A stretch of DNA of 32,000 nt, taken from positions 45,225-77,224 of the forward strand of contig CAUQEW010000011.1 of assembly GCA_963517115.1 (NCBI GenBank). Reading direction: 5' to 3'. This stretch comes from an uncultured Lachnospiraceae bacterium. GTDB taxonomy: Bacteria > Bacillota > Clostridia > Lachnospirales > Lachnospiraceae. The translations under genes were made by a program, and so were the position numbers. Positions 3,593-31,014 of the stretch are shown here, piece after piece (positions within the stretch are counted from its first letter, which is position 1; each line of letters opens with the position of its first letter). Below the pieces are notes generated by a model. The model was not told the origin of the DNA and made no database searches. It saw nothing but the letters and a program-made list of their open reading frames with translations.

Positions 3593-6401
<2,809 letters not shown>

Positions 6402-6422
6402 CTTTTTTCCCCCACAAACACA

Positions 6423-6490
6423 CAAAAAACCTATCATCGCACCTTAAATGGATGATAGGTTTAGCTCGCTTCACAATCGCAACAATTACT
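6423..6490 (-). promoter_or_regulatory. RAT antiterminator target overlapping an intrinsic terminator in the licT leader
   Basis: The minus strand reads GTAATTGTTGCGATTGTGAAGCGAGCTAAACCTATC (RAT-like). It overlaps the 5' arm of the AACCTATCATC-N12-GATGATAGGTT hairpin, which is followed by TTTTTTG. Confidence 0.7.
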
Positions 6491-6503
6491 ACCCTTTAAT
6501 TTC

Positions 6504-6531
6504 ATTATATCCGAATAATGAGAATTGTCAA
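6504..6531 (-). promoter_or_regulatory. Sigma-A promoter of the licT-PTS operon
   Basis: On the minus strand, TTGACA (6531-6526) is followed by 16 nt and then TATAAT (6509-6504). Confidence 0.7.
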
Positions 6532-6534
6532 TAA

Positions 6535-6580
6535 CTTAAATTAAAAAATTAGACGGTCTTAAATTAAAAAATTAGACGGT
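6535..6580. repeat. Perfect 23-bp tandem duplication
   Basis: CTTAAATTAAAAAATTAGACGGT occurs twice back to back (6535-6557 and 6558-6580). It lies just upstream of the licT -35 and downstream of the comEC stop. Confidence 0.95.
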
Positions 6581-6601
6581 CAAACTATAAAAATGGTTCC
6601 T

Positions 6602-9061: not shown

Positions 9062-9100
9062 GTCCCCCTTCTAATTAAAGTTTCTATACTACTCGACTCC

Positions 9101-9196
9101 CTTTATCTAATCAATGACCTTTATCTAATCAATGACCTTTATCTAATCAATGACCTTTGTCTAATCAACGACCTTTATCTAATTAACGACCTTTAG
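9101..9196. repeat. 18-bp tandem repeat, 5 units plus a partial sixth
   Basis: Units start at 9101, 9119, 9137, 9155, 9173 and 9191. The consensus is CTTTATCTAATCAATGAC, and the distal units carry point changes (CTTTGTCTAATCAACGAC, CTTTATCTAATTAACGAC). Confidence 0.95.
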
Positions 9197-9256: not shown

Positions 9257-9522
9257 GACCACCGAAAAAGTCTATCTAAAACTTCATTGATTTGCCCGAT
9301 CGGTGACAGCATACCAATATGTTTTTTGCGTAAACCGGCCGATGGAGACTTCTATGTTTTGTTAAGACTCTATTTGAAAATGTAAGCCGCCGCTTACATT
9401 TTCAAATATCTCAGAGGCTTATAAAAAACATGTCTCCTGAGGGTAAGGTAGCAAAAAATATATTGGTATACTGCCACCAATCGGGCAAATCCCAAAAATT
9501 AACTAAGACTTTTCCAGTGGTC
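9257..9522. repeat. Family B long-foldback element, copy B1 (266 bp)
   Basis: Four stem pairings define the fold:
- GACCACCGAAAAAGTCTATCTAA (9257-) pairs with TTAACTAAGACTTTTCCAGTGGTC (-9522).
- GATTTGCCCGATCGGTGACAGCATACCAATATGTTTTTTGC (9289-9329) pairs with 9451-9491.
- GGAGAC..TATGTTTT pairs with AAAACATGTCTCC.
- TATTTGAAAATGTAAGC pairs with GCTTACATTTTCAAATA around the apex at about 9389. Confidence 0.9.
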
Positions 9523-10533: not shown

Positions 10534-11976
10534 TTAAGCTATATAATTAATAGGTATCCGAACTGTAAATGTGGTTCCTTCGTTTTCCTTACTATAAACT
10601 TTTATTGCACCCTTATGCATATGAATAGCATTTTTTGTAATTGATAACCCAAGTCCTGTACCACCTGTACTTCTCGAACGTGCTTTATCAACACGATAAA
10701 AGCGGTCAAAAATAAAGTCTTGTGCTTCTTCAGGAATGCCTATTCCAGAATCTGACACTTTTACGTAGAAATACTTATGATCTGCATTGAGTGATACTCG
10801 AACCCAGCCGTCTTCTATGTTATATTTAATAGCATTTTCAATTAAATTAGAGATTGCTAATGAAAGTTTAACCTCGTCTATCTCCGCTACAACTGGTCGA
10901 AAACTTTCAAAAACTAATTCAATATTTCGTTTCTTTGCTATTGGTCTTAATCGTTTCAGTACCTGTTCCAATAAATCATTGATTTTAATGGCAGAAATAT
11001 TCATATCACTTGCTGTCTTATCTAACTTCACTAAGGATAAAAGATCATTAATAATTTTATTTTCACGCTCAATTTCATCAGCAATATCCACTAAGAATTC
11101 CCGATACAATTCAGGTGCTACATTCTCCTGCATTAATAAAGAATCTGCTAATACTTTTACCGAAGTTAAGGGCGTTTTTAACTCGTGAGAGACATTAGAA
11201 ACGAATTCCTGTCTTGATCTTTCCAGATTCTTCATTCGAAGAAGCATTTGATTTAAAGAATTTGAGATTTGCTTAATCTCATAAAATCCATCAATGGTAA
11301 CCTCTTCATCCATATAGCCTTCAGTCAGGTGACCGACTGCATTCTTCAGGTTTATTAAAGGTTTTGTTAATATTCCAGAAAAGAAAAATGAAATTACTAA
11401 AATTATGATAGCAGTAGTCATAAATAAAACAGATGCTTTCTGGGATAATATTTCAGATATAGTAACGATATTCTTAGTAGAAAAGTTCATAACAATAACA
11501 CCCATAATTTCTTTAGTGGTATTATGTGTGATTGGTATAGACATCTCTATATAATTGTGCGGTTTATTCTGAAAAATACTATTCGTTCCACGAAGACAAT
11601 TAATGACCTTTTCAGATATTAAAGTTTTGCCATCTTCAATCCCATAGGTATCATTGAGAATATTTAGATGGTTGTCTACAACAAGTATTCTTCCATCAAA
11701 AATACTAGCAATCCGAGTGAGCTCCGTATCAACTTCAGTAACGGTCGGATCTGTTACGTACCCTGAAGATAGCATAAGGTTTACTAACGAATTGCCTTGA
11801 CTTTGTAATTCACTCTTTATCTGTTCATTCGCCTTACTATTATACGTATTAATCATTACCCCTGTAAATATTAGTACAGGAATGATGCCAATTAAGAAGA
11901 GTACTATTACTTCATACACTCTTATACTTTTTAAAAACCAGAATTTAGATTTAATCTTGGAAAAAATAGCCAACAC
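10534..11976 (-). CDS. Sensor histidine kinase (2 TM, HAMP, HisKA, HATPase_c)
   Basis: It has the H-box SHELKTPLTS, the N-box NLIENAIKYN, and the G-boxes DSGIGIP and GGTGLGLSI. The start is uncertain. The track ATG at 12051 overlaps the regulator gene by 100 nt, so I prefer the GTG at 11976 or the TTG at 11973, which overlap the regulator stop by about 25 nt. Confidence 0.8.
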   Translation of the reverse strand: MLAIFSKIKSKFWFLKSIRVYEVIVLFLIGIIPVLIFTGVMINTYNSKANEQIKSELQSQGNSLVNLMLSSGYVTDPTVTEVDTELTRIASIFDGRILVVDNHLNILNDTYGIEDGKTLISEKVINCLRGTNSIFQNKPHNYIEMSIPITHNTTKEIMGVIVMNFSTKNIVTISEILSQKASVLFMTTAIIILVISFFFSGILTKPLINLKNAVGHLTEGYMDEEVTIDGFYEIKQISNSLNQMLLRMKNLERSRQEFVSNVSHELKTPLTSVKVLADSLLMQENVAPELYREFLVDIADEIERENKIINDLLSLVKLDKTASDMNISAIKINDLLEQVLKRLRPIAKKRNIELVFESFRPVVAEIDEVKLSLAISNLIENAIKYNIEDGWVRVSLNADHKYFYVKVSDSGIGIPEEAQDFIFDRFYRVDKARSRSTGGTGLGLSITKNAIHMHKGAIKVYSKENEGTTFTVRIPINYIA

Positions 11977-12701: not shown

Positions 12702-13409
12702 TTAGTTAACTGTTAACATATCGCAAATCTTATTAAAAACAGAATCTTTTATTCCGTCAATATTTTTAATCTCTTCTATCGTCTTAAAACCATCATTATC
12801 TTGTCTGTATGTTATAATACTTTTTGCTTTCGATTCACCAATACCAGTTAAGGTCATTAACTCTTCCATATTTGCTGCATTAATATTTACTTTTACAGGT
12901 TTCTCAATATCACTATCCTTCACAGAAAAATCAGAGGGAGTCATGTCTTCTACCTCTTCCTTGGTAGGAATATAGATTTGTTGACCATCCTCCACCAAAG
13001 CAGCTTGGTTTACAAAATCACCCGCCGCATCATCTGTTAAGCCACCCGCTAATTTAATTATATCAAACAAACGAGAATCCTTTTCGACTTCATAAACATT
13101 CGGTTCTTTGACAGCTCCACAAATATGAATATAAATTAACTCAACACGAATAACCTCAGTATCCTCTTGCGGTACTATTTCATTCTCTTGTATAACTTTT
13201 GTATCATCTTGTATTGCTTTTGTATCATCTTGTATTACTTTTGTATTTTCATCTTTTTCTTGTACATTCGTTTGTGCAAAGTTGGTATCTTGATTTTGTA
13301 AAACTACCTGTGCCTCTTGTATACCAGCACTTCTACAGCTATATAAGATTCCGGCAAGCACGATAAACATTATTGTTAATCCTGTTGTTATCCATTTTTT
13401 ATTCTTCAT
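12702..13409 (-). CDS. comEA: ComEA-family DNA receptor (TM anchor, SLBB-like domain, helix-hairpin-helix)
   Basis: The C-terminus carries INAANMEELMTLTGIGESKAKSIITYR...IKNIDGIKDSVFNKI (tandem HhH). The start is at MKNKKW (13409), which has an AAAGGA RBS. An internal heptad repeat TKVIQDD is present. Confidence 0.85.
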   Translation of the reverse strand: MKNKKWITTGLTIMFIVLAGILYSCRSAGIQEAQVVLQNQDTNFAQTNVQEKDENTKVIQDDTKAIQDDTKVIQENEIVPQEDTEVIRVELIYIHICGAVKEPNVYEVEKDSRLFDIIKLAGGLTDDAAGDFVNQAALVEDGQQIYIPTKEEVEDMTPSDFSVKDSDIEKPVKVNINAANMEELMTLTGIGESKAKSIITYRQDNDGFKTIEEIKNIDGIKDSVFNKICDMLTVN

Positions 13410-13581
13410 GAATATCATCCTTTACAAATAAAGTAATGAAACAAATTACTTTATGAAAAAGGTCTCACCAATATCGTATCCTCAATACTAAATAGCATAA
13501 TATTATTCTACCTAATAAAATGTATGATTACAATAGGTAATTCGAAAGAATTTTATTTGTAAGGAAAATGTAATGAAGTGG

Positions 13582-14260: not shown

Positions 14261-14490
14261 GGGTGGATGTCAAAAGCCCTTCATAACAGGAATTATGAAT
14301 AGCGGTGTATATATAATCATTTTGTCGTCGAACTAGTTCGAATGAGATCGGCTGACAAGGCTGCTTATGTCTGACTATGAGACTAATCTTTGAGGCTCTA
14401 CAAAAGACATGCCGCAGGAAGGAAAGGTAGACAAAATGATTATATATACACCGCTATTCATTCCACAGTCAAAATTGAGCTTTGACACCC
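14261..14490. repeat. Family B long-foldback element, copy B2 (230 bp)
   Basis: There is a perfect 30-bp stem between GAATAGCGGTGTATATATAATCATTTTGTC (14297-14326) and 14430-14459. The outer pairing is GGGTG..TGTCAAA (14261-) with TTTGACACCC (-14490). The interior is homologous to B1, sharing CGGCYGA, TATGTYT, GAGGCT, AAAGACATG and AAGGTAG. Confidence 0.9.
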
Positions 14491-15706: not shown

Positions 15707-16615
15707 TTATTCTGAATGATCTACTTCGTGTTCAAACAATATTCCTTCATTATTAATTATTGCAGTACCAATACCTCGATTGGTAAAGAATTCGAGTAGT
15801 AAACAATGTTCCATTCTTCCGTCTAGAATATGCACTCTTGATACACCATTTCTAACGGCGTCAATACAGTTCTTCAATTTTGGAAGCATACCACCACCAA
15901 TAAATCCACTGTTAATTAAATCATCCGCTTTATCTAAAGTGAGCACTGATATTAATGAACTCTTGTCATTTGGATCTTTATATACACCTTCAATGTCAGT
16001 TAAGAATGCCAATTTTTCTGCTCCAATTGCTGTAGCCACTGCACATGCAGCATCATCTGCGTTAATATTGTAAGCATGATAATTCTCATCCAGCCCGATT
16101 GGTGCTATGATAGGTACAAAATTATTATCAATTAAGGTATTGATCAGATCCACATTAACCTCTGTTATATTGCCAACAAACCCAATGTCCTGTCCATTCA
16201 CTAATCTCTTTTCAACTTTTAGTGTTGAACCATCTTTACCACTGATTCCTACAGCCTTAACTCCTAGCTGCTCCACCATCTGAACCAATCCTTTATTAAC
16301 TTTGCCGAGTACCATTTCTGCTACTTCCATGGTTTCTTCATCTGTTACTCTTAAGCCTTCAACAAATTTTGATTCATGTCCAAGTAAATTAACCCATTTA
16401 CTAATTTCCTTGCCACCACCATGAACAATAATTGGCTGCATACCAACTAATTTTAATAGCGCAACATCTTTAATAACATTTAACTGAAGATTTTCATCTA
16501 ACATGGCACTCCCGCCATACTTAACAACTACCTTCTTATTATTGAACTTCTGAATATATGGTAAGGCTTCGATTAATGTTTGTGCCTTAATTAATATCTG
16601 ATCCATGTGTTCCAT
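15707..16615 (-). CDS. argB: Acetylglutamate kinase
   Basis: The VVKYGGSAM and IVHGGG motifs are present in a protein of about 300 aa. Confidence 0.9.
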
Positions 16616-20282: not shown

Positions 20283-20312
20283 AATCATTAAAGATTGAAG
20301 GAGGCACTTATT

Positions 20313-21533
20313 ATGAAAGAAAAAGTTATTCTCGCCTATTCCGGCGGACTAGACACAACAATGATTATTCCTTGGTTGAAGGAAAACTATGATTACGATG
20401 TGGTTTGTGTATGCATCGATGTAGGACAGGGCAACGAACTTGATGGATTAGAGGAAAGAGCTAAATTATCCGGAGCAACTAAATTATATATTGAAAATGT
20501 AGTTGATGAATTTGTCAACGATTATGTTATGCCTTGTGTAAAAGCAGGTGCTGTATATGAAAATAAATATTTATTAGGAACTTCAATGGCTCGTCCGGTT
20601 ATTGCTAAAAGATTAGTAGAAATCGCTCGAATCGAAGGTGCTACTGCTATCTGTCACGGTGCTACCGGCAAAGGTAATGATCAAGTACGTTTCGAATTAG
20701 GTATCAAGGCTCTTGCTCCCGATCTAAGAATTATTGCACCTTGGAGAATCTGGGATATCACCTCTAGAGAAGAGGAAATCGAATACTGTAAAAATCATGG
20801 TATTGACCTACCTTTCTCAGCTGATAATAGCTATAGCCGTGATAGAAATTTATGGCACATCAGTCATGAAGGTCTGGAGTTAGAAGATCCTGCTAATGCA
20901 CCTGACTATAACCATTTGTTAGTTCTTGGTGTATCTCCTGAAAAAGCTCCTAATGAATCTGATACGCTTACATTGACTTTTGAAAAAGGTATTCCTACTA
21001 GTTTAAATGGAAAATCCATGAAGGTGGCTGATATTATAACTGAGTTAAACAAGCTTGGTGGTAAGCATGGTGTTGGTATCGTTGATATCGTTGAAAACCG
21101 TGTTGTTGGAATGAAATCTCGTGGTGTATATGAAACACCGGGCGGAACCATTTTAATGGAAGCTCATGCTCAGTTAGAAGAATTAATCCTCGACCGTGCA
21201 ACTCTTACCTGTAAAAAAGAAATCGGCAACAAATTTGCTGATGTTGTATATGAAGGAAAATGGTTTACACCTCTTCGCGAAGCATTACAAGCATTTGTTG
21301 ATGTTACACAAGAATATGTAACTGGTGAAGTTAAATTAAAACTTTACAAAGGTAATATTATCAAACAAGGTACAACCTCTCCTTATTCCTTATATAATGA
21401 AAGCATCGCTTCCTTTACAACCGGTGAATTATATAACCACCATGATGCAGAAGGTTTCATCAATCTATTTGGACTTTCACTGAAGGTTCGTGCTATGAAC
21501 ATGGCGGCTGTTGAGGCAGAGAAGAATAAATAA
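20313..21533 (+). CDS. argG: Argininosuccinate synthase
   Basis: AYSGGLDTT and the following conserved blocks are present. The true start is the ATG at 20313, preceded by GAAGGAGG; the track ORF begins at an upstream TTG. Confidence 0.95.
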
Positions 21534-21546
21534 TTTAGTTTAGTAA

Positions 21547-21835
21547 AGATTTGGTGGTTGCCTGGCGCTCTGGTACTTTAAATTCTAATTAAGTCTTTGA
21601 TAACCGGTGGGGCTGCAGGAATATAATAAAAGAGTTTTTCCATTGCTACGACACTTTCTCCTAATAATCCGCGTGGATAGTACAGCAAATTCGGCTGTTC
21701 TCTCCACGCGGATTATTAGGAGGAAGAGTCTCTGCAAAGGAAAAACTTTTTTTTATTATATTCCTGCGGCTCCACCGGTTACTATAGGTTATTGAAGAAT
21801 TTAAAGTACCAGAGCACCAGGCGACCACCAAATCT
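21547..21835. repeat. Family A long-foldback element, copy A1 (289 bp), inverted polarity relative to A2 and A3
   Basis: A 39-bp basal stem (21547-21585 with 21797-21835) has one T:G and one C:A. Further stems pair 21602-21641 with 21739-21780 and 21650-21677 with 21703-21730, and an apical hairpin forms at ACAGC/GCTGT (21682-21698). The reverse complement aligns far better to A3 than the forward sequence does, for example AGAAAGTGTCGTAGCAATGGAAAAACTCT. Confidence 0.9.
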
Positions 21836-22252
21836 AATCGGGTTTAACTTAAATTCAAAAGATTATATATGATAATTAAACTAATATTATATTCTTATGT
21901 AATCATATCACGAACATGATTTATTCAATGTGTAGTTAATACCAGTTGATGTAAAAGATTAAATAGTATCACATTCAAATGACTTAATTTCTAATTTTTA
22001 ATTTCTTAATTGATAAAAGCAAATGAAATTGCAAACAAATGTTTGTATATAATTAAAATTTATGTTATAATATGGAAATAAAATAAATAACATATGGAAG
22101 GAGTAATACAAACGATAACTACCTATTGTTTTTAGTAATTTAGATGGAACAGTTGATCGATGAAGAGAGCTCTTACAGGTGGTCTATCGTAGAATAAAGT
22201 TGCAGTTGTATATTATTGTACTTATTTCAAATAATAAAAAGGAGGGATTAAA

Positions 22253-22744
22253 ATGATTTCGCAAGAAAAATTAATGAAAGCTCTAATAAAAGGAAAATAT
22301 GAATCCTATATTAAACAAAGCTCTACATACAATCCATATTCAAAATCGGTATTATATGATTGGGAATTCAAACTACCTATAGATGATTTATTATACATCG
22401 ATTATTTTAGGGGTTTTAATCCTTATAGTGGCGCCGAATATGTATATGAAAAAGATAATAATATACCTATTTGGTCCTGCGACTATGTGGGTTATGTAAA
22501 ACAAGATATGGATGTATCTGCAGAAAATATTTATAATTTTCTAAAGGAATCAAGGGGAAATCATTTATTACATTGTAATAATAAACTATTTTCTAATTAT
22601 AAATATGAAAACAACATTTTTCAGTATGAAACATATTTTCAAGGAGATATAACATCATTATTACAAATAGAAAATTTCTATTATAATAACTTACTAATAG
22701 CACAGCAAATATCATCAGGAAGGTTAAAACAATCCACTGATTAA
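22253..22744 (+). CDS. Hypothetical protein, possibly DUF5680-like
   Basis: The 163-aa ORF has a strong RBS (AAAGGAGGG). The pattern YxDxFxGxNPYSGxE.V.......PIWxxxYxGYV......IYNFLK recalls DUF5680 proteins from memory, but this is not verified. Confidence 0.6.
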   Translation: MISQEKLMKALIKGKYESYIKQSSTYNPYSKSVLYDWEFKLPIDDLLYIDYFRGFNPYSGAEYVYEKDNNIPIWSCDYVGYVKQDMDVSAENIYNFLKESRGNHLLHCNNKLFSNYKYENNIFQYETYFQGDITSLLQIENFYYNNLLIAQQISSGRLKQSTD

Positions 22745-22804
22745 TATTTTATTATTAAAAGAAACCATCCGATCTTTTTCTTTTAATAAGTCCCCACCCA
22801 CAAA

Positions 22805-23092
22805 GATTTGGCGGAGCTTGGATCGTCGGACGCTATAAATTCCATCGAATACCTATGTCAACAGGAGAATTTGCAGGTATATATTAATAACGAATTTTTC
22901 GTTTGCGGAGACACTTTCTACTAATAGTACACTTGGAGCGGACAGTCGTTTTTACTGTCCTCTCCAAGCGTACTATTAGTAGAAAGTGTCATAGCAACAG
23001 AAAAATCCGATTAATATATACCTGCAAAGCCTCCTGTTGTCGAATGTCTACCTGGAATTTATAGCGGACGACGATCCAAGCTCCGCCAAATC
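22805..23092. repeat. Family A long-foldback element, copy A2 (288 bp)
   Basis: The 39-bp basal stem GATTTGGCGGAGCTTGGATCGTCGGACGCTATAAATTCC (22805-22843) pairs with 23054-23092, with a tandem G:A/A:G. A perfect 19-bp stem pairs 22870-22888 with 23010-23028. A 37-bp distal stem pairs 22910-22946 with 22954-22990 and has two mismatches. Confidence 0.9.
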
Positions 23093-23209
23093 CCTACCCA
23101 CACTAGATTAGAATTTGATTAAGCATTTATTTATCTATTTATTAATTTTAGAATCTATAATATAATAGGGTTAGCATTTCATTATATTATTCTTGAAAGG
23201 AGAAATAAC

Positions 23210-23530
23210 ATGATTATTACTACTACCCCTACTATTGAGGGAAAAACTATTACAGAATACAAAGGTATTGTATTTGGAGAAGTAATCTCCGGTATAAATT
23301 TTATTAAGGACTTTGCTGCTGGCTTATCTAACTTCTTTGGAGGACGCTCTGGAACCTACGAGGAAGAAATGATACAAGCAAGAGAAAATGCCATGAAGGA
23401 AATGGAGAATCGAGCTCTTCAAATGGGAGCAGATGCAGTTGTTGGTGTGGACATTGACTACGAAGTTCTTGGTGCTGATAATGGTATGATTATGGTAACT
23501 GCTTCGGGTACTGCTGTAAGATATATGTAA
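23210..23530 (+). CDS. YbjQ/UPF0145-family protein
   Basis: The 106-aa protein reads [28 protein letters not shown]...[14 protein letters not shown], which is typical of the family. Confidence 0.85.
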
Positions 23531-23545
23531 GTAATTAAATCTTAA

Positions 23546-23596
23546 AATAAGCCATAGAAACCAATTAAACATTGGATTCTATGGCTTATTTTGTAT
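23546..23596 (+). terminator. Rho-independent terminator after the ybjQ-family gene
   Basis: AATAAGCCATAGAA (23546-23559) pairs with TTCTATGGCTTATT (23577-23590), followed by TTGTATT. Confidence 0.8.
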
Positions 23597-23706
23597 TGCG
23601 ATCTGCATTTTACATTTTATGGCATAATATCTTCTCTTTTCATTTTGTCTGTATTATAATGAATTATATACTTTACTCTATCTAACTGAAAGAAGGAGGT
23701 TATTTC

Positions 23707-24405
23707 ATGGAATATTATTTATTTCCCATATTAGGATTCATAATACTTTTTATAATAATTATTCCGCTATACTTTCGGTTAAAGAAGACAAAACATCAAT
23801 TAATTGCTTTAATGATAAAAGGTTCTGCTACAATGGTTCCTGTTCTCTTCTCCTTAGCTTCCATCATACAGTTGGGAAGAAAGCCCTATCAGAACATTGG
23901 TTCAGCTCATTTACCAGGAGCTTCTTGTTGGCTGCTTATAGGACTACTTCTGTGTTTGATTGGTGACATTATAATAGGCATACATTTTCTTGGTGGAATA
24001 GTAGCTTTTCTGCTTGGCCATATCTGCTATATTACAGCATTTAGCAATCTTGCCTCCTTACAGCTATGGAGTATTGTTATATTTATAGTACTCTTTTTAC
24101 TTACTTTAGTAGTCTTCTATCCATTAATTCCTAAGATGTCTAAAAATAAAATTCCATTTTTATTCTATGGTACTGTAATTTTAACTATGCTTTCCCTAGC
24201 ACTTTTACTACCATATACTATCGGATACCTTGGAATATTACCTGCAATAGGAGCCTTTCTTTTTGTGCTATCTGATTTTCTTCTTGCTAGAATTATGCTG
24301 GTGAAATTTACGCCCTTAAGTGATGTGGTTAGTCTATATATTTACTATTTAGGCCAATTTGCCTTAGCTATGAGTGTTTATTTATATTCATCAATTACGT
24401 ACTAA
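23707..24405 (+). CDS. YhhN-family membrane protein (lysoplasmalogenase-like)
   Basis: The 232-aa protein has about 8 TM and paired GD and SD motifs in TM segments (LCLIGDIIIG and FVLSDFLLA). Confidence 0.65.
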   Translation: MEYYLFPILGFIILFIIIIPLYFRLKKTKHQLIALMIKGSATMVPVLFSLASIIQLGRKPYQNIGSAHLPGASCWLLIGLLLCLIGDIIIGIHFLGGIVAFLLGHICYITAFSNLASLQLWSIVIFIVLFLLTLVVFYPLIPKMSKNKIPFLFYGTVILTMLSLALLLPYTIGYLGILPAIGAFLFVLSDFLLARIMLVKFTPLSDVVSLYIYYLGQFALAMSVYLYSSITY

Positions 24406-24452
24406 TTAAATTTATTTACCGTGTAAAATAATAGATCCAGATTTAAAATTAA

Positions 24453-25391
24453 TTAAAAGAAATATTGATCTAGAAAATCATTCAGTACTTTCTCATATTC
24501 AACTCGATTTTTTTGACAGGATTGAGCATGCATTGCATTTGGTGCAAGATATAGCTCTTTCTTGTCCAGCTTAGCATCATACATATCCTTAGACATAGAA
24601 CAAGGTACATAATCATCTTCTAATCCATGGATAAATAAGATTGGGGCGTTGCTTTGAACTGCTCCATCTAATGGAACTACATCATCAATCCAGAAGCCTG
24701 CCCTTAATTTTATGAGTATGCTCGCAATTGCCAAAAACGGGAATTGGGGCAAATGATGGTATTTCTTAAGCTGGTGCAATAATAACTTTTTTAAATTAGA
24801 ATAAGAACAATCTGCTATCGTACATCGTACCCTTCCATCAATAGCAAGATGAGACAAGACCGTAGCTGCTCCCATAGATTCCCCATGAGTTACTATTGCT
24901 AGATTTGTTCCAAATTCTTCATAACACCAATCTATTATAGTTTGTAAATCAAATTTCTCATAATATCCCATTGAGGTAAATGCTTTCCCACTTAACCCGT
25001 GGTTTCTATGATCATATGTGAGCACTGTTATTCCTCTCTTAAGGAACAGATCAGCATACATCATACTGCTATATTTTCCACACGTATAACCATGACAGAT
25101 AATTGCTATCTTCATTTTACCGCTTGGATTCCCTACTTGTTTTTTACTTGTATCATTATTTATTAATTGGCAAGATAAATTATATCCATATCTGGATCTT
25201 ATGATAAAATCTTCCTTATCCCAACCTTGATATATCTTATCAGTAAGTCTTCCTTCTTCCAACTCTCTTTGATAGAGTTCCTCATAGTCTATTACTTTTG
25301 GTTTGAGTACTATATTCGACAATACCCAAGAAACAGTAACAACTATAATAAGAAGAATAACTAGAACACCCAGAATAATAAAACCAGTCAT
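24453..25391 (-). CDS. Membrane-anchored alpha/beta hydrolase
   Basis: It has an N-terminal TM helix, an HG oxyanion motif (ICHGYT), a nucleophile elbow GESMG, and C-terminal D/H candidates. Confidence 0.8.
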   Translation of the reverse strand: MTGFIILGVLVILLIIVVTVSWVLSNIVLKPKVIDYEELYQRELEEGRLTDKIYQGWDKEDFIIRSRYGYNLSCQLINNDTSKKQVGNPSGKMKIAIICHGYTCGKYSSMMYADLFLKRGITVLTYDHRNHGLSGKAFTSMGYYEKFDLQTIIDWCYEEFGTNLAIVTHGESMGAATVLSHLAIDGRVRCTIADCSYSNLKKLLLHQLKKYHHLPQFPFLAIASILIKLRAGFWIDDVVPLDGAVQSNAPILFIHGLEDDYVPCSMSKDMYDAKLDKKELYLAPNAMHAQSCQKNRVEYEKVLNDFLDQYFF

Positions 25392-25424
25392 GTATTTCTA
25401 CCTCCTCTTAACTAAATGTTAGGA

Positions 25425-26201
25425 TTAATCCTTATTAAGTTGATATGTCGCATATTCTTTATCAAAATGATAACCTAACTTTTCTGCAACTTTTACCGAA
25501 TTTAGGTTAGCTGCATCCCAGTTTGGATACTTATTAAGCTTGATACATTCTAGTAAAAGTCTTGCTCCACATATTGTCGCAAGCCCCTGTCTTCGGTATT
25601 CCTCCCTTGTTCCAATTTCTATCTCAATACCACCTTGGTAAGCAGTATAGGAGGAGGCTCCACAGATTATTCTGCCATTATGTAAAATAACATAACCTAA
25701 GCCTACCTTTTTGTAATATTCTGCCGATTTAAAATTGGAACAGAAATCTTTTGACCAATTCTCTGATAAAGCTAAATCATATAACTCATCATTTATCTGT
25801 CGTAATTCATACTCTTTAGGTAATTGATTCATATATTCATGCAGTTTTTCCACCGAAAAGGCAAATCCTTCTTTTCGTATGGCATAACGTGTGATTCTTT
25901 TATATTTTTTAGAATGATTCAGCTTAACTTCCCAATCTCTTGTATGCGGAATAAATAATAAATCCTTTTCATCTATCTCATTTGGGTATTCATTTAAAAT
26001 ATTATCTGCTTCTACTGAATCCACATTTCCAACCGGAAAGCAGAAGTCACCTTGTACAATGCGTGCAACTGTTGGATTTGGAAATTGGTCAACCCAGGCT
26101 CTACCCATATATCCTTCTAAACAAGACCATACAGTACTATCGGTACAATTCTTATAAAAGTCATTCAAACATTTCATTTGATCTTTTGTTAATTCAATCA
26201 T
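25425..26201 (-). CDS. GNAT-family N-acetyltransferase
   Basis: The C-terminal acetyl-CoA binding motif is present: EIGTREEYRRQGLATICGARLLLECI. Confidence 0.75.
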   Translation of the reverse strand: MIELTKDQMKCLNDFYKNCTDSTVWSCLEGYMGRAWVDQFPNPTVARIVQGDFCFPVGNVDSVEADNILNEYPNEIDEKDLLFIPHTRDWEVKLNHSKKYKRITRYAIRKEGFAFSVEKLHEYMNQLPKEYELRQINDELYDLALSENWSKDFCSNFKSAEYYKKVGLGYVILHNGRIICGASSYTAYQGGIEIEIGTREEYRRQGLATICGARLLLECIKLNKYPNWDAANLNSVKVAEKLGYHFDKEYATYQLNKD

Positions 26202-26430
26202 TTTAACTCCTCTACATTCGCTATTGCAAAATTTCTCATATTTATTTTAACATAATTAATTCTTAAATAATATTTATTTTTCATTAAGATTTTTAAAGTT
26301 TCGTATTTATTAGAATATCATTAGGTTTTACTAATATCATTTACTAAATACCAACCTAATGCTATAATATGAAAAGTAATGGGTGCTATAACCCATATAA
26401 TCTAAATCACTTTAAGAAAGGTGGAAATAT

Positions 26431-27426
26431 ATGAACATTTACGAAGAATTTAAGGAAAAGAGGAAAATGCCAAAGTTAAAACACGTTGGAGTAATCCTTT
26501 TTGTAATACTTGCAATAATTCTATTATCCAGTTCACCCTATACCGTTAATGAACAGGAGCAAGCTGTATTAACTACTTTTGGTGTAGCAAAATCAGTAAC
26601 CGACTCTGGATTACATTTTAGAATTCCTTTCGTTCAAAAGATACAAAAAGTTAATACTACAATCAATGGTTTTGCAATTGGATATGACCATGAGACCAAT
26701 CAAACTATCGAAGAAGAAGCTGTCATGATTACCTCAGATTATAATTTTGTCGATGTCGATTTCTTTGTAGAATATAAGGTATCTGATCCGGTAAAAGCGG
26801 TCTATTCCTCAAAAGAACCGGTTCTTATACTAAAAAATATCTCACAAAGCTGCATCCGCTCCATAATTGGAAGTTATGATGTTGACAGCGTATTAACAGC
26901 TGGAAAAAATGAAATTCAAGCTGCAATTAAAGAAATGGTTTTACAGAAATTAGAATTACAAGATATCGGAATCCAATTAATAAACATTACTATTCAAGAT
27001 TCTGAGCCACCAACGCAAGAAGTTATGGAAGCCTTTAAAGCCGTCGAGACAGCAAAACAAGGAAAAGAGACAGCTATAAATAATGCAAACAAGTATCGTA
27101 ATGAGAAGCTACCTGCAGCATTAGCTGATGTGGATAAGATTATTAAAGAAGCTGAAGCACAGAAAGAAGAACGCATCAATGAAGCAACCGGCCAAGTTGC
27201 CAGATTCAATGCTATATATGCTGAATTTGTTAAGAATCCTGTTGTTACCAAAGAGAGAATGTTTTATGAAACAATGGAAAATATACTTCCTTCTCTTGAA
27301 GTTATTATAGATGGTACGGATGGTGTTCAAAAAGTTCTGCCACTAGATTCCTTTGTATCTATAAATGAAGCAGATACTACTGCTTCTAGTGAAACAACAA
27401 CTAACACAGAAAAGGAGGCAGAATAA
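26431..27426 (+). CDS. hflK: SPFH/band-7 protein, HflK-like FtsH modulator
   Basis: An N-terminal TM segment is followed by an SPFH domain and a coiled-coil tail. It is paired with a downstream HflC-like gene 2 nt away. Confidence 0.75.
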   Translation: MNIYEEFKEKRKMPKLKHVGVILFVILAIILLSSSPYTVNEQEQAVLTTFGVAKSVTDSGLHFRIPFVQKIQKVNTTINGFAIGYDHETNQTIEEEAVMITSDYNFVDVDFFVEYKVSDPVKAVYSSKEPVLILKNISQSCIRSIIGSYDVDSVLTAGKNEIQAAIKEMVLQKLELQDIGIQLINITIQDSEPPTQEVMEAFKAVETAKQGKETAINNANKYRNEKLPAALADVDKIIKEAEAQKEERINEATGQVARFNAIYAEFVKNPVVTKERMFYETMENILPSLEVIIDGTDGVQKVLPLDSFVSINEADTTASSETTTNTEKEAE

Positions 27427-27428
27427 TT

Positions 27429-28292
27429 ATGAGTAAAAAAATATTATTAAGTTTTGCCGGGATACTTGTTATAATCCTTTTAGTATTTTCTGTCGTAATT
27501 ACAAGTGAAAATGAATTTAAATTAGTAAGGCAATTTGGTAAGGTAAATAAAGTTATAGACAAACCAGGGATTAGTTTAATGATTCCCTTTTTACAAACTG
27601 CCGATACTCTTCCAAATGAAATATTATTATATGACCTAGCTTCTTCTGATGTTATTACCATGGATAAGAAAACCATGATTAGTGACAGTTACGTATTATG
27701 GAAAATTACTGACCCATTAAAATTTGCTCAATCTTTGAATTCTTCAATTATTAGTGCAGAAAGCAGAATAGACACTGTTGTCTATAATGCAATAAAAAAT
27801 GTGATTGGTAGTCTTTCCCAAAATGAAGTCATTAGTGGCAGAGATGGTACATTGTCTACTTCTATTATGAACAGTATAGGTACCTCAATGGAACAATATG
27901 GAATTACCTTATTAACCGTAGAGACGAAACGTCTAGATCTTCCATCTGATAATAAAACAGCGGTATATGAAAGAATGATTTCTGAGCGCGATAAAATTGC
28001 AGCTACCTACATAGCTGAGGGCAATTCGGAAGCGCAAGTGATTCAGAATACAACAGATAAAGAAATATCTATCAGCCTTTCAACTGCTAAAGCCAAAGCG
28101 GAACGAATCATTGCAGAAGGAGAAGGAGAATATATGAGAATATTATCAGAAGCCTATGCAGATAAATCCCGTACTGAGTTCTACTCCTTTGTTCGATCAC
28201 TTGATGCTGCTAAGGAATCCTTGTCAGGTGATAACAAAACTATAATCTTACCTTCTAATTCTCCAATCTCTCAAATATTTATTGGAAAGTAA
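27429..28292 (+). CDS. hflC: SPFH/band-7 protein, HflC-like FtsH modulator
   Basis: An N-terminal TM segment is followed by an SPFH domain, with motifs such as RLDLPSDNKTAVYERMISER and AEGEGEY. Confidence 0.75.
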   Translation: MSKKILLSFAGILVIILLVFSVVITSENEFKLVRQFGKVNKVIDKPGISLMIPFLQTADTLPNEILLYDLASSDVITMDKKTMISDSYVLWKITDPLKFAQSLNSSIISAESRIDTVVYNAIKNVIGSLSQNEVISGRDGTLSTSIMNSIGTSMEQYGITLLTVETKRLDLPSDNKTAVYERMISERDKIAATYIAEGNSEAQVIQNTTDKEISISLSTAKAKAERIIAEGEGEYMRILSEAYADKSRTEFYSFVRSLDAAKESLSGDNKTIILPSNSPISQIFIGK

Positions 28293-28301
28293 TTTATGTT
28301 A

Positions 28302-28340
28302 TTGAAAAGGCTGGTACCAATTAGGTATCAGCCTTTTCAA
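28302..28340 (+). terminator. Rho-independent terminator after hflC
   Basis: TTGAAAAGGCTG (28302-28313) pairs with CAGCCTTTTCAA (28329-28340), followed by a T-rich tract. Confidence 0.75.
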
Positions 28341-28510
28341 TTATATATTTAGTCAATATATTGTTATAATATGTTGAATTTTACGAAGAAATACAGTATT
28401 ATAAAGCATAGTAAACATGCTTTAAATATTGCAAGTACTATAGATTTAAATTGCAAGGAGAAAATTGTTGTACTTTAATTTAACCCACTTGAAAATAAAG
28501 GAGATAAAAT

Positions 28511-29317
28511 ATGTCTTTTGAAATACTTGTTTTAGATATAGATGGAACCTTAACCAATTCAGAAAAGGATGTTTCTCCACTCACCTTAGATGCTATATTT
28601 AAGGCTCAAGAACGCGGACACAAAGTGGTGCTCGCTTCCGGACGCCCAACCCGAGGAATACTAGATTTAGCAAACCGTTTAAAACTGTCAGAATACAATG
28701 GCTATATTTTATCATTTAATGGAGCTAAGATAATAAGTTGTAGAACAAATGAAATAATATATCAAACAGTCCTACCACGTGAAATCATTCCACAGCTTTA
28801 CACCGCTGCCATTGAGAACTCTGTAGGTATACTATCTTACGAGGAAAATACAATTATTGCTGGTACAGACATAGATGAATATATGGAAAAAGAATCTAAA
28901 ATTAATAACATTCCAATCAAGCGTGTCGATAATTTTCCAAACTATATCAACTTTGATGTTAACAAATGTCTGATGACAGGCTCAGGTACTCATCTTGAAA
29001 AAGTAGAAAAAATTATGAAAAACAAATTTGGAGGTATCTTAAATATATATCGTTCTGAACCATATTTCATAGAAATAATGCCTCAAAACATAGATAAAGC
29101 TTATTCTCTAAGCAAATTATTAGATTATCTGGGATTGTCAAAAGATCAAATGATTAGCTGCGGAGATGGATTTAACGATTTATCTATGATCCAATATGCC
29201 GGCATGGGTGTCGCTATGGCAAATGCCCAGGAAATCGTAAAACAAGCCGCCGATTACATCACGCTATCCAACGATGAAGACGGTGTAGCTCACGTTATTC
29301 ATGAATTTATGCTCTAG
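28511..29317 (+). CDS. Cof-type HAD-IIB family phosphatase
   Basis: It has the LDIDGTL motif I, a cap region, and the GDGFNDLSM motif IV. Confidence 0.85.
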   Translation: MSFEILVLDIDGTLTNSEKDVSPLTLDAIFKAQERGHKVVLASGRPTRGILDLANRLKLSEYNGYILSFNGAKIISCRTNEIIYQTVLPREIIPQLYTAAIENSVGILSYEENTIIAGTDIDEYMEKESKINNIPIKRVDNFPNYINFDVNKCLMTGSGTHLEKVEKIMKNKFGGILNIYRSEPYFIEIMPQNIDKAYSLSKLLDYLGLSKDQMISCGDGFNDLSMIQYAGMGVAMANAQEIVKQAADYITLSNDEDGVAHVIHEFML

Positions 29318-29390
29318 ATTATTGTGTTTTCAGGAAAATTATAATATAATAATTAGATACTATACAAATATTAGAAATTAAGAATTCAAT

Positions 29391-29702
29391 ATGTTGAATT
29401 CCATAATTATGATTTTAATTAGAAAGGTATATATAACTATGTTTAAAATAATTATAAAAAAATTATATTTAATAGGCTATATTATAATTATATATGGCAT
29501 CTTTCAATTAGGATACTTGTGTTTTTACTTTATAAACACTTTTTTAACTAATAAAGAACGTACAGTTATTGAACCAAATGGAATATCAACTATTAGCAAA
29601 ATACATTTTAACTATATTAATATAATTTTTGTAGTTTGTTTTTTCATATTTCTCATATTACTAGGATTTTTTATAATAAAAAAAGGTAATAAGAAAGGGT
29701 AA
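29391..29702 (+). CDS. Hypothetical small membrane protein (weak call)
   Basis: This is a very AT-rich 103-aa ORF with two hydrophobic segments. A more plausible start is MFKIIIK at about 29439. I see no recognisable homology. Confidence 0.35.
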   Translation: MLNSIIMILIRKVYITMFKIIIKKLYLIGYIIIIYGIFQLGYLCFYFINTFLTNKERTVIEPNGISTISKIHFNYINIIFVVCFFIFLILLGFFIIKKGNKKG

Positions 29703-29770
29703 ACAACATCATTTAAGAATTGAATTATTTTATGATTGAGCCACCCTTTTTTATTGGTACGAATAACTTT

Positions 29771-29816
29771 AATACAAAGGACATGGTGTAATTTAAATCA
29801 CCATGCCCTTTGTATT
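29771..29816. repeat. Isolated 18-bp-stem palindrome
   Basis: AATACAAAGGACATGGTG (29771-29788) pairs with CACCATGCCCTTTGTATT (29799-29816) with one A:C mismatch. Neither strand has a clear U-tract. Confidence 0.7.
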
Positions 29817-29889
29817 ATCTGAGATTTAGTATAAGATTTTGTAAGAATATACTATTCCTTTTCTTTATAATATAGTTTAAACCCACAAA

Positions 29890-30170
29890 GATTTGGCGGA
29901 GCCTGGGGTCGTACACTATAAATTCTATCGATAACTCACTTCTACAGGAGGCTTCGCAGGTACATATTAATAAAGAGTTTTTCCCTTGCGGCGACACTTT
30001 CTTTTGATTGTACGATTAGAGAGGACAGTCTTTATGTCCTATCAAAGCGCACAATCAAAAGAAAGTGTCAGAGCAATGGAAAAACTCTATTAATATATAC
30101 CTGCGAAACCTCCTGTTGTAGAAAACCTAAATTAGAATTTATAGTGTACGACACCAGGCTCCGCCAAATC
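29890..30170. repeat. Family A long-foldback element, copy A3 (281-bp hairpin; conserved flanks span about 29876-30181)
   Basis: A 37-bp basal stem (29890-29926 with 30134-30170) has one mismatch. Further stems pair 29952-29972 with 30088-30108 and 29993-30026 with 30036-30069. The apex is GGACAGTCTTTATGTCC. Confidence 0.9.
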
Positions 30171-30181
30171 TCTACATTAAA

Positions 30182-30952
30182 TCAAGAATTCAATGATACA
30201 ACTTTACCATAACGTTCAAAGATTTCTTTTACTTGCTGCAGTAACTCTTTGCTAGGTTCTTTGGTATTGGAAAGTTGATAATCCAAACCAAGTTCTTTCC
30301 ATTTAAATTCACCCATCTTATGAAATCCCAGGAGTTCAATCTTCGATACATTCGGATAATGGTCTAAATGTTCGGATAATTGTATGACGCTTTCTAAATT
30401 ATCCGTAAGTTGTGGTACTAGCACATACCGTATCCAGGTGTTCATATTGATTTCTTTTAAATAATCAAGAAAATCAAGTGTTGGAGCAAGTGAAACACGT
30501 GTTACTGTTTTATATACCAGTGGGTTATAATTTTTAATATCAAGCAATACTATATCCGTATATTCCAATACTTCTTTCACAACATTATTCCATACAAAAC
30601 CTGAGGTATCGATTGCAACTGATATCTCCTGTTCCCTGCAAAGTTTACATACTTCTAAGATGAACTCGGATTGCAGTAGTGGCTCACCTCCTGTAAAGGT
30701 TACACCACCACCTGTAAATTTCATATATGATTTGTATCTTAGAATCTCATCCATCAACTGTTGCGGAGTATATTCTGTTCCCTTTGTTGTATCCCAAGTA
30801 TCCGGATTGTGACAAAATTGACATCTTAATACACATCCTTGCATAAAAACTACGAACCGAATGCCAGGTCCATCTACCGTTCCACAGCTTTCTATTGAAT
30901 GTATTCTTCCAATGATATTCATATTTTCAGTATTCTTAATTTTATTGCTCAT
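30182..30952 (-). CDS. pflA: Pyruvate formate-lyase activating enzyme (radical SAM)
   Basis: IGRIHSIESCGTVDGPGIRF and the CxxxCxxC cluster motif (CVLRCQFCHNPDTW) are present. I place the start at the ATG at 30952 (MSNKIK); the track ORF starts at an upstream TTG. Confidence 0.9.
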   Translation of the reverse strand: MSNKIKNTENMNIIGRIHSIESCGTVDGPGIRFVVFMQGCVLRCQFCHNPDTWDTTKGTEYTPQQLMDEILRYKSYMKFTGGGVTFTGGEPLLQSEFILEVCKLCREQEISVAIDTSGFVWNNVVKEVLEYTDIVLLDIKNYNPLVYKTVTRVSLAPTLDFLDYLKEINMNTWIRYVLVPQLTDNLESVIQLSEHLDHYPNVSKIELLGFHKMGEFKWKELGLDYQLSNTKEPSKELLQQVKEIFERYGKVVSLNS

Positions 30953-31014
30953 AAATTTCACCCAACCTTTCAAAGATCAAGTTCATTTTTTTATTATTAT
31001 TTGTTAAGAAGTTA

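Follow-up and report, generated by a model that had tools for sequence, protein, structure and literature searches.

Three rod-like foldbacks, A1, A2 and A3, in a 32-kb stretch of DNA from an uncultured Lachnospiraceae bacterium (contig CAUQEW010000011.1, positions 45,225 to 77,224; the whole stretch is called the window below) belong to one family of dispersed repeats, family A, which is found in Anaerocolumna-like Lachnospiraceae and in some other Bacillota. The host of the window is itself Anaerocolumna-like, with an ArgG protein 93% identical to that of A. cellulosilytica. The reading that we favour, and to which we would give an even chance, is that family A is a non-autonomous mobile hairpin repeat, akin to a giant GTAG-tagged repetitive extragenic palindrome (REP) or REPIN, or to a foldback miniature inverted-repeat transposable element (MITE), that is co-transcribed in the 3' untranslated regions (UTRs) of genes. 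Its copies fold into a polar rod whose arms covary, most of them lie behind stop codons in a fixed orientation, and related genomes lack them at the same sites.

Family A copies fold into one long, polar rod

We define the element strand (el) as the strand that reads 5' ACCC-N4-AGATTTGG ... CCAAATCYYTAC 3', and its complement as op; the el strand of A1 is the minus strand of the window. The three copies and their apical cores are as follows.

21547-21835, element strand minus: A1, rod-like foldback, located by inverted-repeat listing, nhmmer and covariance model
22805-23092, element strand plus: A2, rod-like foldback, located by inverted-repeat listing, fold, nhmmer and covariance model
29889-30171, element strand plus: A3, rod-like foldback, located by inverted-repeat listing, fold, nhmmer and covariance model
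21630-21747, minus: apical core of A1, 118.4 bits with covariance model R1 (94.2 bits on the opposite strand)
22893-23010, plus: apical core of A2, 114.7 bits with covariance model R1 (93.7 bits on the opposite strand)
29976-30089, plus: apical core of A3, 117.4 bits with covariance model R1 (96.2 bits on the opposite strand)

Each copy is about 290 bp long and forms a single, almost unbroken rod of about 140 bp (z about -21 to -25), a rod of about 288 nt having about 120 Watson-Crick pairs. The fold of A2 reached -186 kcal/mol on the plus strand and -193.5 kcal/mol on the minus strand (z = -21 and -24), values that none of 100 shuffled sequences equalled, and folding A3 with DNA parameters gave -110 and -111 (z about -24). 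From its base the rod consists of a basal stem that begins with GATTTGG, an internal loop of 13-17 nt per side, the GCAGGTATAT stem, a 3x3 loop of TTGC and GCAA, the GAC stem and an apical hairpin. According to the inverted-repeat listing, the terminal arms of A2 and A3 are 39-40 nt long and 95-97% complementary. The apical core is made up of TTTTTC..TTGC-GGN-GAC, a covarying helix, GTACGATTRGAGAGGAC..GTCCTTTCAAAGCGTAC, and then GTC-RNA-GCAA..GAAAAA.

An earlier note on this DNA had described three foldback copies with a common layout of stems and loops; all three were found where it had placed them, each folds into one rod, and the computed folds bear out the layout. The polar markers that it listed match as described, and its claim that A1 is inverted relative to A2 and A3 is upheld by alignment identity (83% versus 79%), by nhmmer (312 versus 197 bits) and by the covariance model (118 versus 94 bits).

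Arm covariation and fixed asymmetries across twelve copies

Motif scans and synteny look-ups yielded nine further independent copies, which with the three in the window make 12, plus one orthologue of a window copy. A scan of a genome collection with the polar motif returned 14 loci, among which the only true relative was L011, a copy in a Bacillota metagenome-assembled genome (MAG), the pattern being too strict. Six further contigs with family-A copies (L015-L020) all come from one metagenome, two copies (L024L and L024R) lie in L024, from a relative with 95% ArgG identity, and the orthologue of A2 was found in L025, from a strain whose DUF5680 protein is 91% identical. Five of the ten non-window copies count as full length, among them L018, both L024 copies and, barring its apical deletion, L025. 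Another four of the ten have kept the apical part and the middle stem and have lost the 37-39-bp basal stem; the L016 copy is cut off by the end of its contig and the L015 copy is truncated. The copy counts to hand are three in 32 kb (window), two in 21 kb (L024) and at least six contigs in one metagenome, and 199 kb of sequence yielded no additional copies when scanned with a covariance model for the apical core of 118 nt. There were no family-A matches in viral contigs, plasmids or phages, two viral hits being GC-rich chance matches. Likewise, no insertion sequence with family-A ends was matched among plasmids, phages and viral contigs; genomes and metagenomes were scanned for copies only.

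Rfam has no entry for family A, and we found no description of it in the literature that could be searched. Scanned at gathering thresholds, neither the window nor any copy in nine loci matched an Rfam family, in agreement with the earlier note, which did not recognise a named RNA or repeat family here, and a permissive scan returned only generic miRNA-hairpin models, at 40 bits against a threshold of 90.

When the 12 copies were aligned, standard pairs filled 91.3% of the pair cells, compared with 77% after shuffling and about 41% with the partner slid. Both sides have changed in 67 of the 118 pairs, and none of 500 shuffles scored as high on any measure; the compensated arm changes described earlier for three copies are thereby borne out and extended to 12. 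In addition, the rod carries features that are not palindromic. With the covariance model of the apical core, the el strand outscores the op strand by 20-35 bits in every copy, and the two feet of the rod have differing flanks in all copies. Fixed throughout are the 3x3 internal loop, TTGC-GGN-GAC opposite GTC-RNA-GCAA, and, near the apex, purine-purine mismatches at every third pair (CGATTRGAGAGGAC opposite GTCCTTTCAAAGCG). The large internal loop has about the same sequence, TCGAWAACCTA, on both sides and, because this sequence repeats directly, is two-fold symmetric when folded. The fixed mismatches are evidence against an origin of the compensation in which one arm was simply copied from its partner, and also against blanket mismatch correction. 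Judged from sequence, these conserved non-palindromic features make a single-strand-specific function of the rod plausible.

Such a core could belong to a family of free-standing small-RNA genes, with a promoter-like AACA-N16-TATATT in the rod and an apical hairpin of about 118 nt as the product. The apical core is the most conserved part, its asymmetric internal loops are fixed and its helix covaries strongly; moreover, A2 contains a TCAACA-16-TATATT match and most copies a similar sequence. However, promoter-like matches numbered only seven where 12 were expected from shuffled sequence, the palindromic region presents the same promoter-like sequence on both strands, no terminator follows the core, and Rfam holds no relative. 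Copies that are insertion-polymorphic, truncated or deleted are also what selfish repeats show, and we think a small-RNA gene family very unlikely. A promoter and a terminator of family A's own were considered as candidates and rejected, the promoter-like matches being below the shuffled expectation and terminator-like sites being absent.

The G:T strand bias is not a property of the family

The earlier note had counted G:T mismatches at 11:1 in favour of one strand of the element and had concluded from this that a single-stranded fold is under selection. Counting only isolated transition mismatches with at least two Watson-Crick pairs on each flank, we obtained 5:1 for A1, 2:0 for A2 and 3:0 for A3, that is 10:1 in favour of the op strand, so that the bias stands within the window; over all arm-aligned positions of the window copies the count was just 17:7. 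The other ten copies gave 11:21 (op:el), in the opposite direction, and the family totals came to 21:22 for isolated mismatches and 57:57 for all arm-aligned positions. As a family property the bias thus fails, being reversed in the relatives, and the disappearance of the asymmetry from the family totals, named beforehand as an outcome that would speak against it, removes the bias as proof of single-strand selection. A symmetric mismatch spectrum of 21:22 is the expectation for neutral single transitions after insertion. What survives of the claim of a single-stranded fold is the conserved polar rod with its covarying arms, which keeps a single-stranded function plausible without the G:T argument.

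The apical core folds better on the op strand in all three window copies and on the el strand in all nine others. Because the orientation to neighbouring genes is the same in both groups, the bias is not attributable to selection on the transcribed strand.

Copies lie behind stop codons in a fixed orientation

All copies are intergenic, and in 10 of the 12 the el-3' end lies at, or no more than about 80 nt from, the stop codon of the gene that reads into the rod. For six intact rods the distance is 2-35 nt:

A1: argG, 13 nt from stop
A3: pflA, 8 nt from stop
L018: MatE gene, 4 nt from stop
L019: carB, 2 nt from stop
L011: AraC-type gene, 22 nt from stop
L024R: argD, 35 nt from stop

The copies in L015, L016, L017 and L020 are remnants at a stop codon, and the exceptions to the rule, A2 and L024L, are the second members of the gene-bracketing pairs described below. 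Where the intergenic region is convergent, the end nearer a stop is the el-3' end in four of four cases and never the ACCC end. Orientation tracks the neighbouring gene and not the chromosome strand, A1 and A3 being opposite to each other only 8 kb apart. Canonical intrinsic terminators are present in relatives exactly at the positions of A1 (argG) and A3 (pflA), and in the window no terminator-like site other than the rod was found after argG.

Some further observations concern these junctions. The L015 copy lies between the upstream stop codon and a T-box leader; T-box leaders were found at 1768-2025 of L015 and 138-397 of L019 (116 and 112 bits). A C-terminal extension of PflA caused by A3 was considered and rejected: the extra residues are N-terminal, arising from the start-codon call, and the stop is native. 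The mechanically called TTG starts of argG (20295-21533) and pflA (30182-30973) lie 6 and 17 codons upstream of the starts of their homologues, and the real starts are probably internal ATGs. Between a 103-aa open reading frame (ORF) and A3, at 29776-29815, there is a hairpin with a 13-bp stem and no clear T-run (AAAGGACATGGTG..CACCATGCCCTTT), which may be the displaced bidirectional terminator of the convergent junction.

The two feet of the rod carry different short sequences, located in the window as follows.

21543-21546, plus: foot tag GTAA of A1, 9 nt after the argG stop (21531-21533), the rod following 13 nt after that stop
23094-23097, minus: foot tag GTAG of A2 (CTAC on the plus strand)
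30172-30175, minus: foot tag GTAG of A3 (CTAC on the plus strand), 6 nt from the pflA stop (30182-30184, minus)
22796-22799, plus: ACCC at the other foot of A2
29881-29884, plus: ACCC at the other foot of A3
21840-21843: ACCC at the other foot of A1 (GGGT on the plus strand)

Read on the op strand, the stop-side foot has GTAG directly before AGATTTGG in A3, L018 and L025, and may be written GTAG-AGATTTGGCGGAGC, with terminal sequence of the type GATTTGGCGGAGC. Variants are GTAG-G-GATTTGG in A2, GTAG placed 6 nt ahead of a degenerate foot in L024L, and GTAA in A1. An unpaired GTAG or GTAA at one foot therefore characterises six of the seven full-length copies, while L024R and the copies without a basal stem lack the tag. 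The other foot ends in CYGGGTT on the op strand. In about five of seven copies, TTTAR or TTA stands 5' of the GTAG foot. Possible target duplications are TTTA (A1), TTTAA (A3), TAGG (L025) and TTA (L018), all in AT-rich flanks, with none clear for A2 and L024R.

Placement of this kind might have been selected by the host, with family A acting in cis as a 3'-UTR RNA (a terminator, a 3'-exonuclease barrier or an RNase III site) and its spread being secondary, a possibility compatible with a mobile origin. The fixed end at stop codons makes the op strand co-sense with the upstream gene in 10 of the 12 copies, the op strand tail CUUUGUGGGUUU is U-richer than that of the el strand, and the rod stands where relatives have canonical terminators, which are missing after argG in the window; the apical core is kept in copies without a basal stem, and the orthologues A2 and L025 differ by compensated changes. 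However, G:U and A:C mismatches at 21:22 show no preference for the transcribed strand, the better-folding strand varies by lineage despite the same orientation rule, and the conserved purine-rich loops belong to the el strand, not to the co-sense op strand. A proper U-tract was not found, the whole apical core is gone in the orthologue L025, and close relatives lack the element at every site examined. We consider a host-selected 3'-UTR RNA to be a possible explanation, if an unlikely one.

Insertion polymorphism and gene-bracketing pairs

In A. cellulosilytica (L021), L022 and L024, argG and ybjQ are adjacent, 312-392 nt apart, and none has a family-A copy there. The same junction in the window holds about 1.55 kb of extra DNA (21543-23097), comprising A1 (minus), a DUF5680 gene and A2 (plus). 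Similarly, a HAD hydrolase gene directly adjoins pflA in L021, L022, L024, L031 and L032, and the window adds the 103-aa ORF and A3 at this place. The two added genes are:

22253-22744, plus: DUF5680 gene, bracketed by A1 (minus) and A2 (plus), absent from the junction in three relatives
29391-29702, plus: 103-aa ORF adjoining A3 on its ACCC side, by prediction a small membrane protein, absent from the junction in relatives

The 103-aa ORF had no family match. A. cellulosilytica (L021) and L022 had no family-A copy in their syntenic regions of 21 kb, and L031 and L032 had none at pflA. The element thus shows the presence or absence between related genomes by which MITEs are recognised, with syntenic sites empty in L021, L022, L024, L031 and L032.

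A second pair occurs at the ydcZ/argD junction of L024, where a minus copy (566-887) and a plus copy (2332-2637) enclose a transglutaminase-like DUF553 gene (1285-2166); the window has at this junction another foldback that is not of family A. Both pairs have the arrangement minus copy, gene, plus copy, with the GTAG (el-3') ends facing outward, and each surrounds a gene that relatives lack. DUF5680 as a fixed partner or a mobilising enzyme was rejected, and it was judged to be cargo, because homologues 76-80% identical occur with no element nearby; the DUF5680 protein had no NCBIfam match and nothing significant among solved structures. Also rejected was a conserved module of about 400 nt between the minus copy and the next gene: the four regions fail to align, and one is a T-box leader.

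In L025 the A2 orthologue (597-770) lacks the apical 137 nt through deletion; its arms share 86-92% identity with those of A2, and the flank toward ybjQ about 97%. L025 begins 57 nt upstream of the DUF5680 gene, leaving the region equivalent to A1 unassembled, and many of the contigs found are short. The L015 truncation, the copies without a basal stem and the internal deletion in L025 are forms of decay that favour a mobile repeat.

Insertion polymorphism would also be seen if family A were a terminal-inverted-repeat MITE moved by a DDE transposase, with the pairs as ordinary composite transposons and the internal palindrome incidental. In favour of this are the perfect-type inverted ends of 37-39 bp on full-length copies, the possible short, AT-rich direct repeats in the flanks, and the outer ends of each pair, which are of the same type, as a composite requires; the terminal inverted repeats of a MITE are indeed present, yet trivially so, as in any palindrome. 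What such a MITE leaves unexplained is that the internal arms are complementary through many double changes, that the feet are asymmetric (GTAG versus ACCC-N4) and that orientation to the neighbouring gene is non-random. The termini are the least conserved part and are frequently missing, whereas a simple terminal-repeat MITE would be expected to show the reverse, with termini conserved more than the core. Scans of plasmid, phage and viral sequences revealed no related transposase-bearing element, and we regard a DDE-moved MITE as improbable.

The bracketed genes might alternatively recall cassettes, each a gene plus a hairpin, with the rod as a folded single-stranded recombination site of the type of integron attC or the CTX-phage attP hairpin. 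Genes missing from relatives adjoin the ACCC side of A1, A2, A3 and both L024 copies, and the motif common to both sides of the internal loop gives a two-fold symmetry as for a dimer-binding site. However, the sites of a pair are inverted and not direct, which integration of a circular cassette cannot yield, no integrase is encoded among the neighbours, most copies are solo and beside housekeeping genes, and DUF5680 homologues elsewhere have no element. Integron attC cassettes would have directly oriented sites beside an integrase and attI, a pattern that family A does not show, and we give a recombination site hardly any credence.

Other foldbacks and repeats

Two foldbacks of other kinds lie in the window. 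The first, at 9289-9491, is a rod of about 200 nt (GATTTGCCCGATCGG ... CCGATTGGGCAAATC; -103.6 kcal/mol, z = -13) whose right end is 45 nt from the stop of a Germane-domain gene (9537), as in the placement rule of family A; by eye it has TTTTTGC..GGAGAC / GTAGCAAAAA and GATTTG ends in common with family A. The second, at 14295-14461 (z = -8.6), encloses a branched interior in a perfect outer stem of 32 bp and lies 49 nt from the argD stop; a segment of this interior (AGCCTTGTCAGCCGATCTCA..GTCGAACTAGTTCGA) is found again at 387-442, in inverted form and 89% complementary. The motifs that family A and these two foldbacks have in common by eye are TTTTTGC..GGAGAC / GTAGCAAAA and the GATTTG ends. 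The covariance model of family A detected neither foldback at E <= 1, and a superfamily link between them and family A is unproven.

Just before the 9289 foldback and upstream of a comEC-like gene, an intergenic tract at 9100-9195 consists of 5.3 tandem copies of an 18-bp unit (CCTTTATCTAATCAATGA, 94% matches). Tandem repeats of 21 bp and 42 bp are also present at 13159-13247, within a 238-aa ORF (12702-13418) that, by synteny with L021, is probably a ComEA-like gene.

Outside the window, L022, which has no family A, carries another foldback family of about 85 nt (CGAGTGTCAWWAGCC ... GGCTTTTGAC) at 11288-11370 and 16080-16165. These positions correspond to the two junctions, downstream of argG and between the genes for pflA and the HAD hydrolase, where the window has family A, and the two junctions seem to be recurrent landing sites for hairpin repeats. 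In L017, tandem repeats of about 23 nt (CCTTAACGAAAACCTGCCCTTGA, 3880-3995) directly adjoin the truncated copy of family A and extend into the region of its outer 3' arm. L032 contains at 5469-7374 an IS200/IS605-type unit, inserted between ABC transporter genes and pflB, which encodes a 133-aa Y1 transposase and a 494-aa ORF without a Pfam match; its ends were considered as kin of family A and rejected, showing no similarity.

Discussion

As a mobile hairpin repeat, family A would depend for its new copies on an enzyme that acts in trans and recognises the single strand in its folded form. Candidates are a Y1/HUH transposase of the REP-associated tyrosine transposase (RAYT) or IS200/IS605 type, or a transposase for which the inverted ends of 37-39 bp are the substrate. 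Compensated differences between copies would then reflect selection on the copyability of the element itself, and the isolated mismatches neutral decay after insertion. After insertion, the mRNA of the upstream gene would end in a transcript of the op strand, which would replace the terminator hairpin, and two copies could carry the gene between them as a composite unit.

The closest described systems are in several respects the GTAG-tagged REPs. In these repeats one end carries an unpaired GTAG, the stems covary and contain G:T pairs, and the distance to the 3' ends of ORFs is less than 20 bp, the repeat sometimes supplying the stop codon (PMC3733652). On either side of RAYT genes there are REPs or long inverted repeats, some of them self-complementary (PMC3733652), RAYT Y1 transposases are proposed to move REPs in the form of folded single strands (PMC3733652; PMC8266576), and TnpA-REP acts on a folded single-stranded REP preceded by a conserved motif (PMC8266576). 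Family A is likewise palindromic and extragenic, with an unpaired GTAG, or a variant of it, at one foot; its stems vary by complementary changes and carry G:T pairs, and it lies just downstream of ORFs, near their stops. As in REPtrons or TIRtrons, inverted copies can flank a gene, and the proposed active form is a single strand that has folded. REP systems have tens to hundreds of copies per genome. In contrast to the short units of REPs (20-40 bp with a stem of 6-13 bp, or a doublet), the family-A rod has about 140 paired positions, its single GTAG foot makes it asymmetric where a REP doublet is not, and its short variants lack GTAG. Furthermore, family A flanks DUF5680 and transglutaminase-like genes and not transposases, and no RAYT was seen in the window or among the neighbours.

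IS200/IS605 TnpA is common in Clostridia (PMC6006769). Like the palindrome-associated transposable elements (PATEs) of this group, family A can plausibly be read as strand-polar, hairpin-dependent and transposase-less. PATEs insert beside a fixed target of 4-5 nt without duplicating it, and the recurrence of TTTAR just 5' of the GTAG foot is in this respect suggestive only. PATEs also have two distinct small subterminal hairpins, whereas family A is one rod that spans the element.

Imperfect palindromes of 100-300 bp in transcribed intergenic DNA include ERIC/IRU in enterobacteria, Correia/NEMIS in Neisseria and bcr1 in the Bacillus cereus group. Repeats of the ERIC, Correia and bcr1 type occur as internal-deletion size variants, are insertion-polymorphic between strains, and form an RNA hairpin that can alter the stability or termination of the neighbouring mRNA. 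Family A resembles these repeats in being a palindrome of intergenic DNA that has size variants by internal deletion and is insertion-polymorphic. It is unrelated to them in sequence, longer and far more fully paired, and differs in having an apical and not a terminal core and a strict end-to-stop-codon orientation. Integron mobilisation units are bounded by two 288-bp MITEs that bracket a passenger gene; two family-A copies similarly bracket a passenger gene that relatives lack, although the family-A pairs could be independent insertions on either side of a new gene.

Several observations weigh against a mobile hairpin repeat. We found no transposase or recombinase gene in the window or beside any copy, and no Y1 gene in the window; the sole Y1 gene seen, that of L032, has unrelated ends and no family-A copy nearby. 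RAYTs are not reported to be common in Clostridia, their classes being sparse outside a few phyla (PMC6006769), and the host is a Firmicute, a group from which the survey of GTAG REPs reports none (PMC3733652). Target-site duplication is ambiguous, with candidates in four of about six readable cases, in AT-rich DNA. The best-conserved part of the element is the apical core and not the termini, and at least five of the 12 copies lack the basal stem and GTAG while the core is still conserved and covarying, which on sequence grounds suggests a function for the core itself, as RNA or as a protein-binding site. At one locus, A2 and L025 differ by two compensated pair changes, a hint of in-situ selection or gene conversion. 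In addition, the 12-copy sample is small, and no complete genome was among the sequences scanned.

Structured intergenic palindromic repeats that are mobile and co-transcribed are, as a general kind, already known. Family A stands out by how long its rod is and how completely it is paired, by the conserved core at the apex, by the strict orientation to stop codons with replacement of the terminator, by the gene-bracketing pairs and by its Firmicute host. More speculatively, and with considerable doubt on our part, family A may be the first of a distinct class of GTAG-tagged Lachnospiraceae rods of about 290 nt, in which the core would bind a single-strand-specific enzyme, insertion in fixed orientation a few nucleotides after stop codons would replace the terminator, and inverted pairs would move single accessory genes from one chromosomal site to another; such a combination of hairpin-based gene shuttling and a 3'-end module would have no described counterpart in Firmicutes.

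Near-perfect palindromes of 140 bp break short-read assemblies and therefore matter for MAG quality. If family A is a mobile hairpin repeat, the biology of REPs and REPINs, in which single-strand hairpin repeats persist in genomes and shape the 3' ends of mRNAs, would extend to Clostridia, where such systems are undescribed, and would come to include elements ten times the length of a REP. Landing at stop codons with replacement of the terminator would offer a testable link from a selfish repeat to the control of mRNA 3' ends, and the two pairs that bracket genes point to a simple way for small accessory genes to arrive at conserved operon junctions of Lachnospiraceae from gut and soil.

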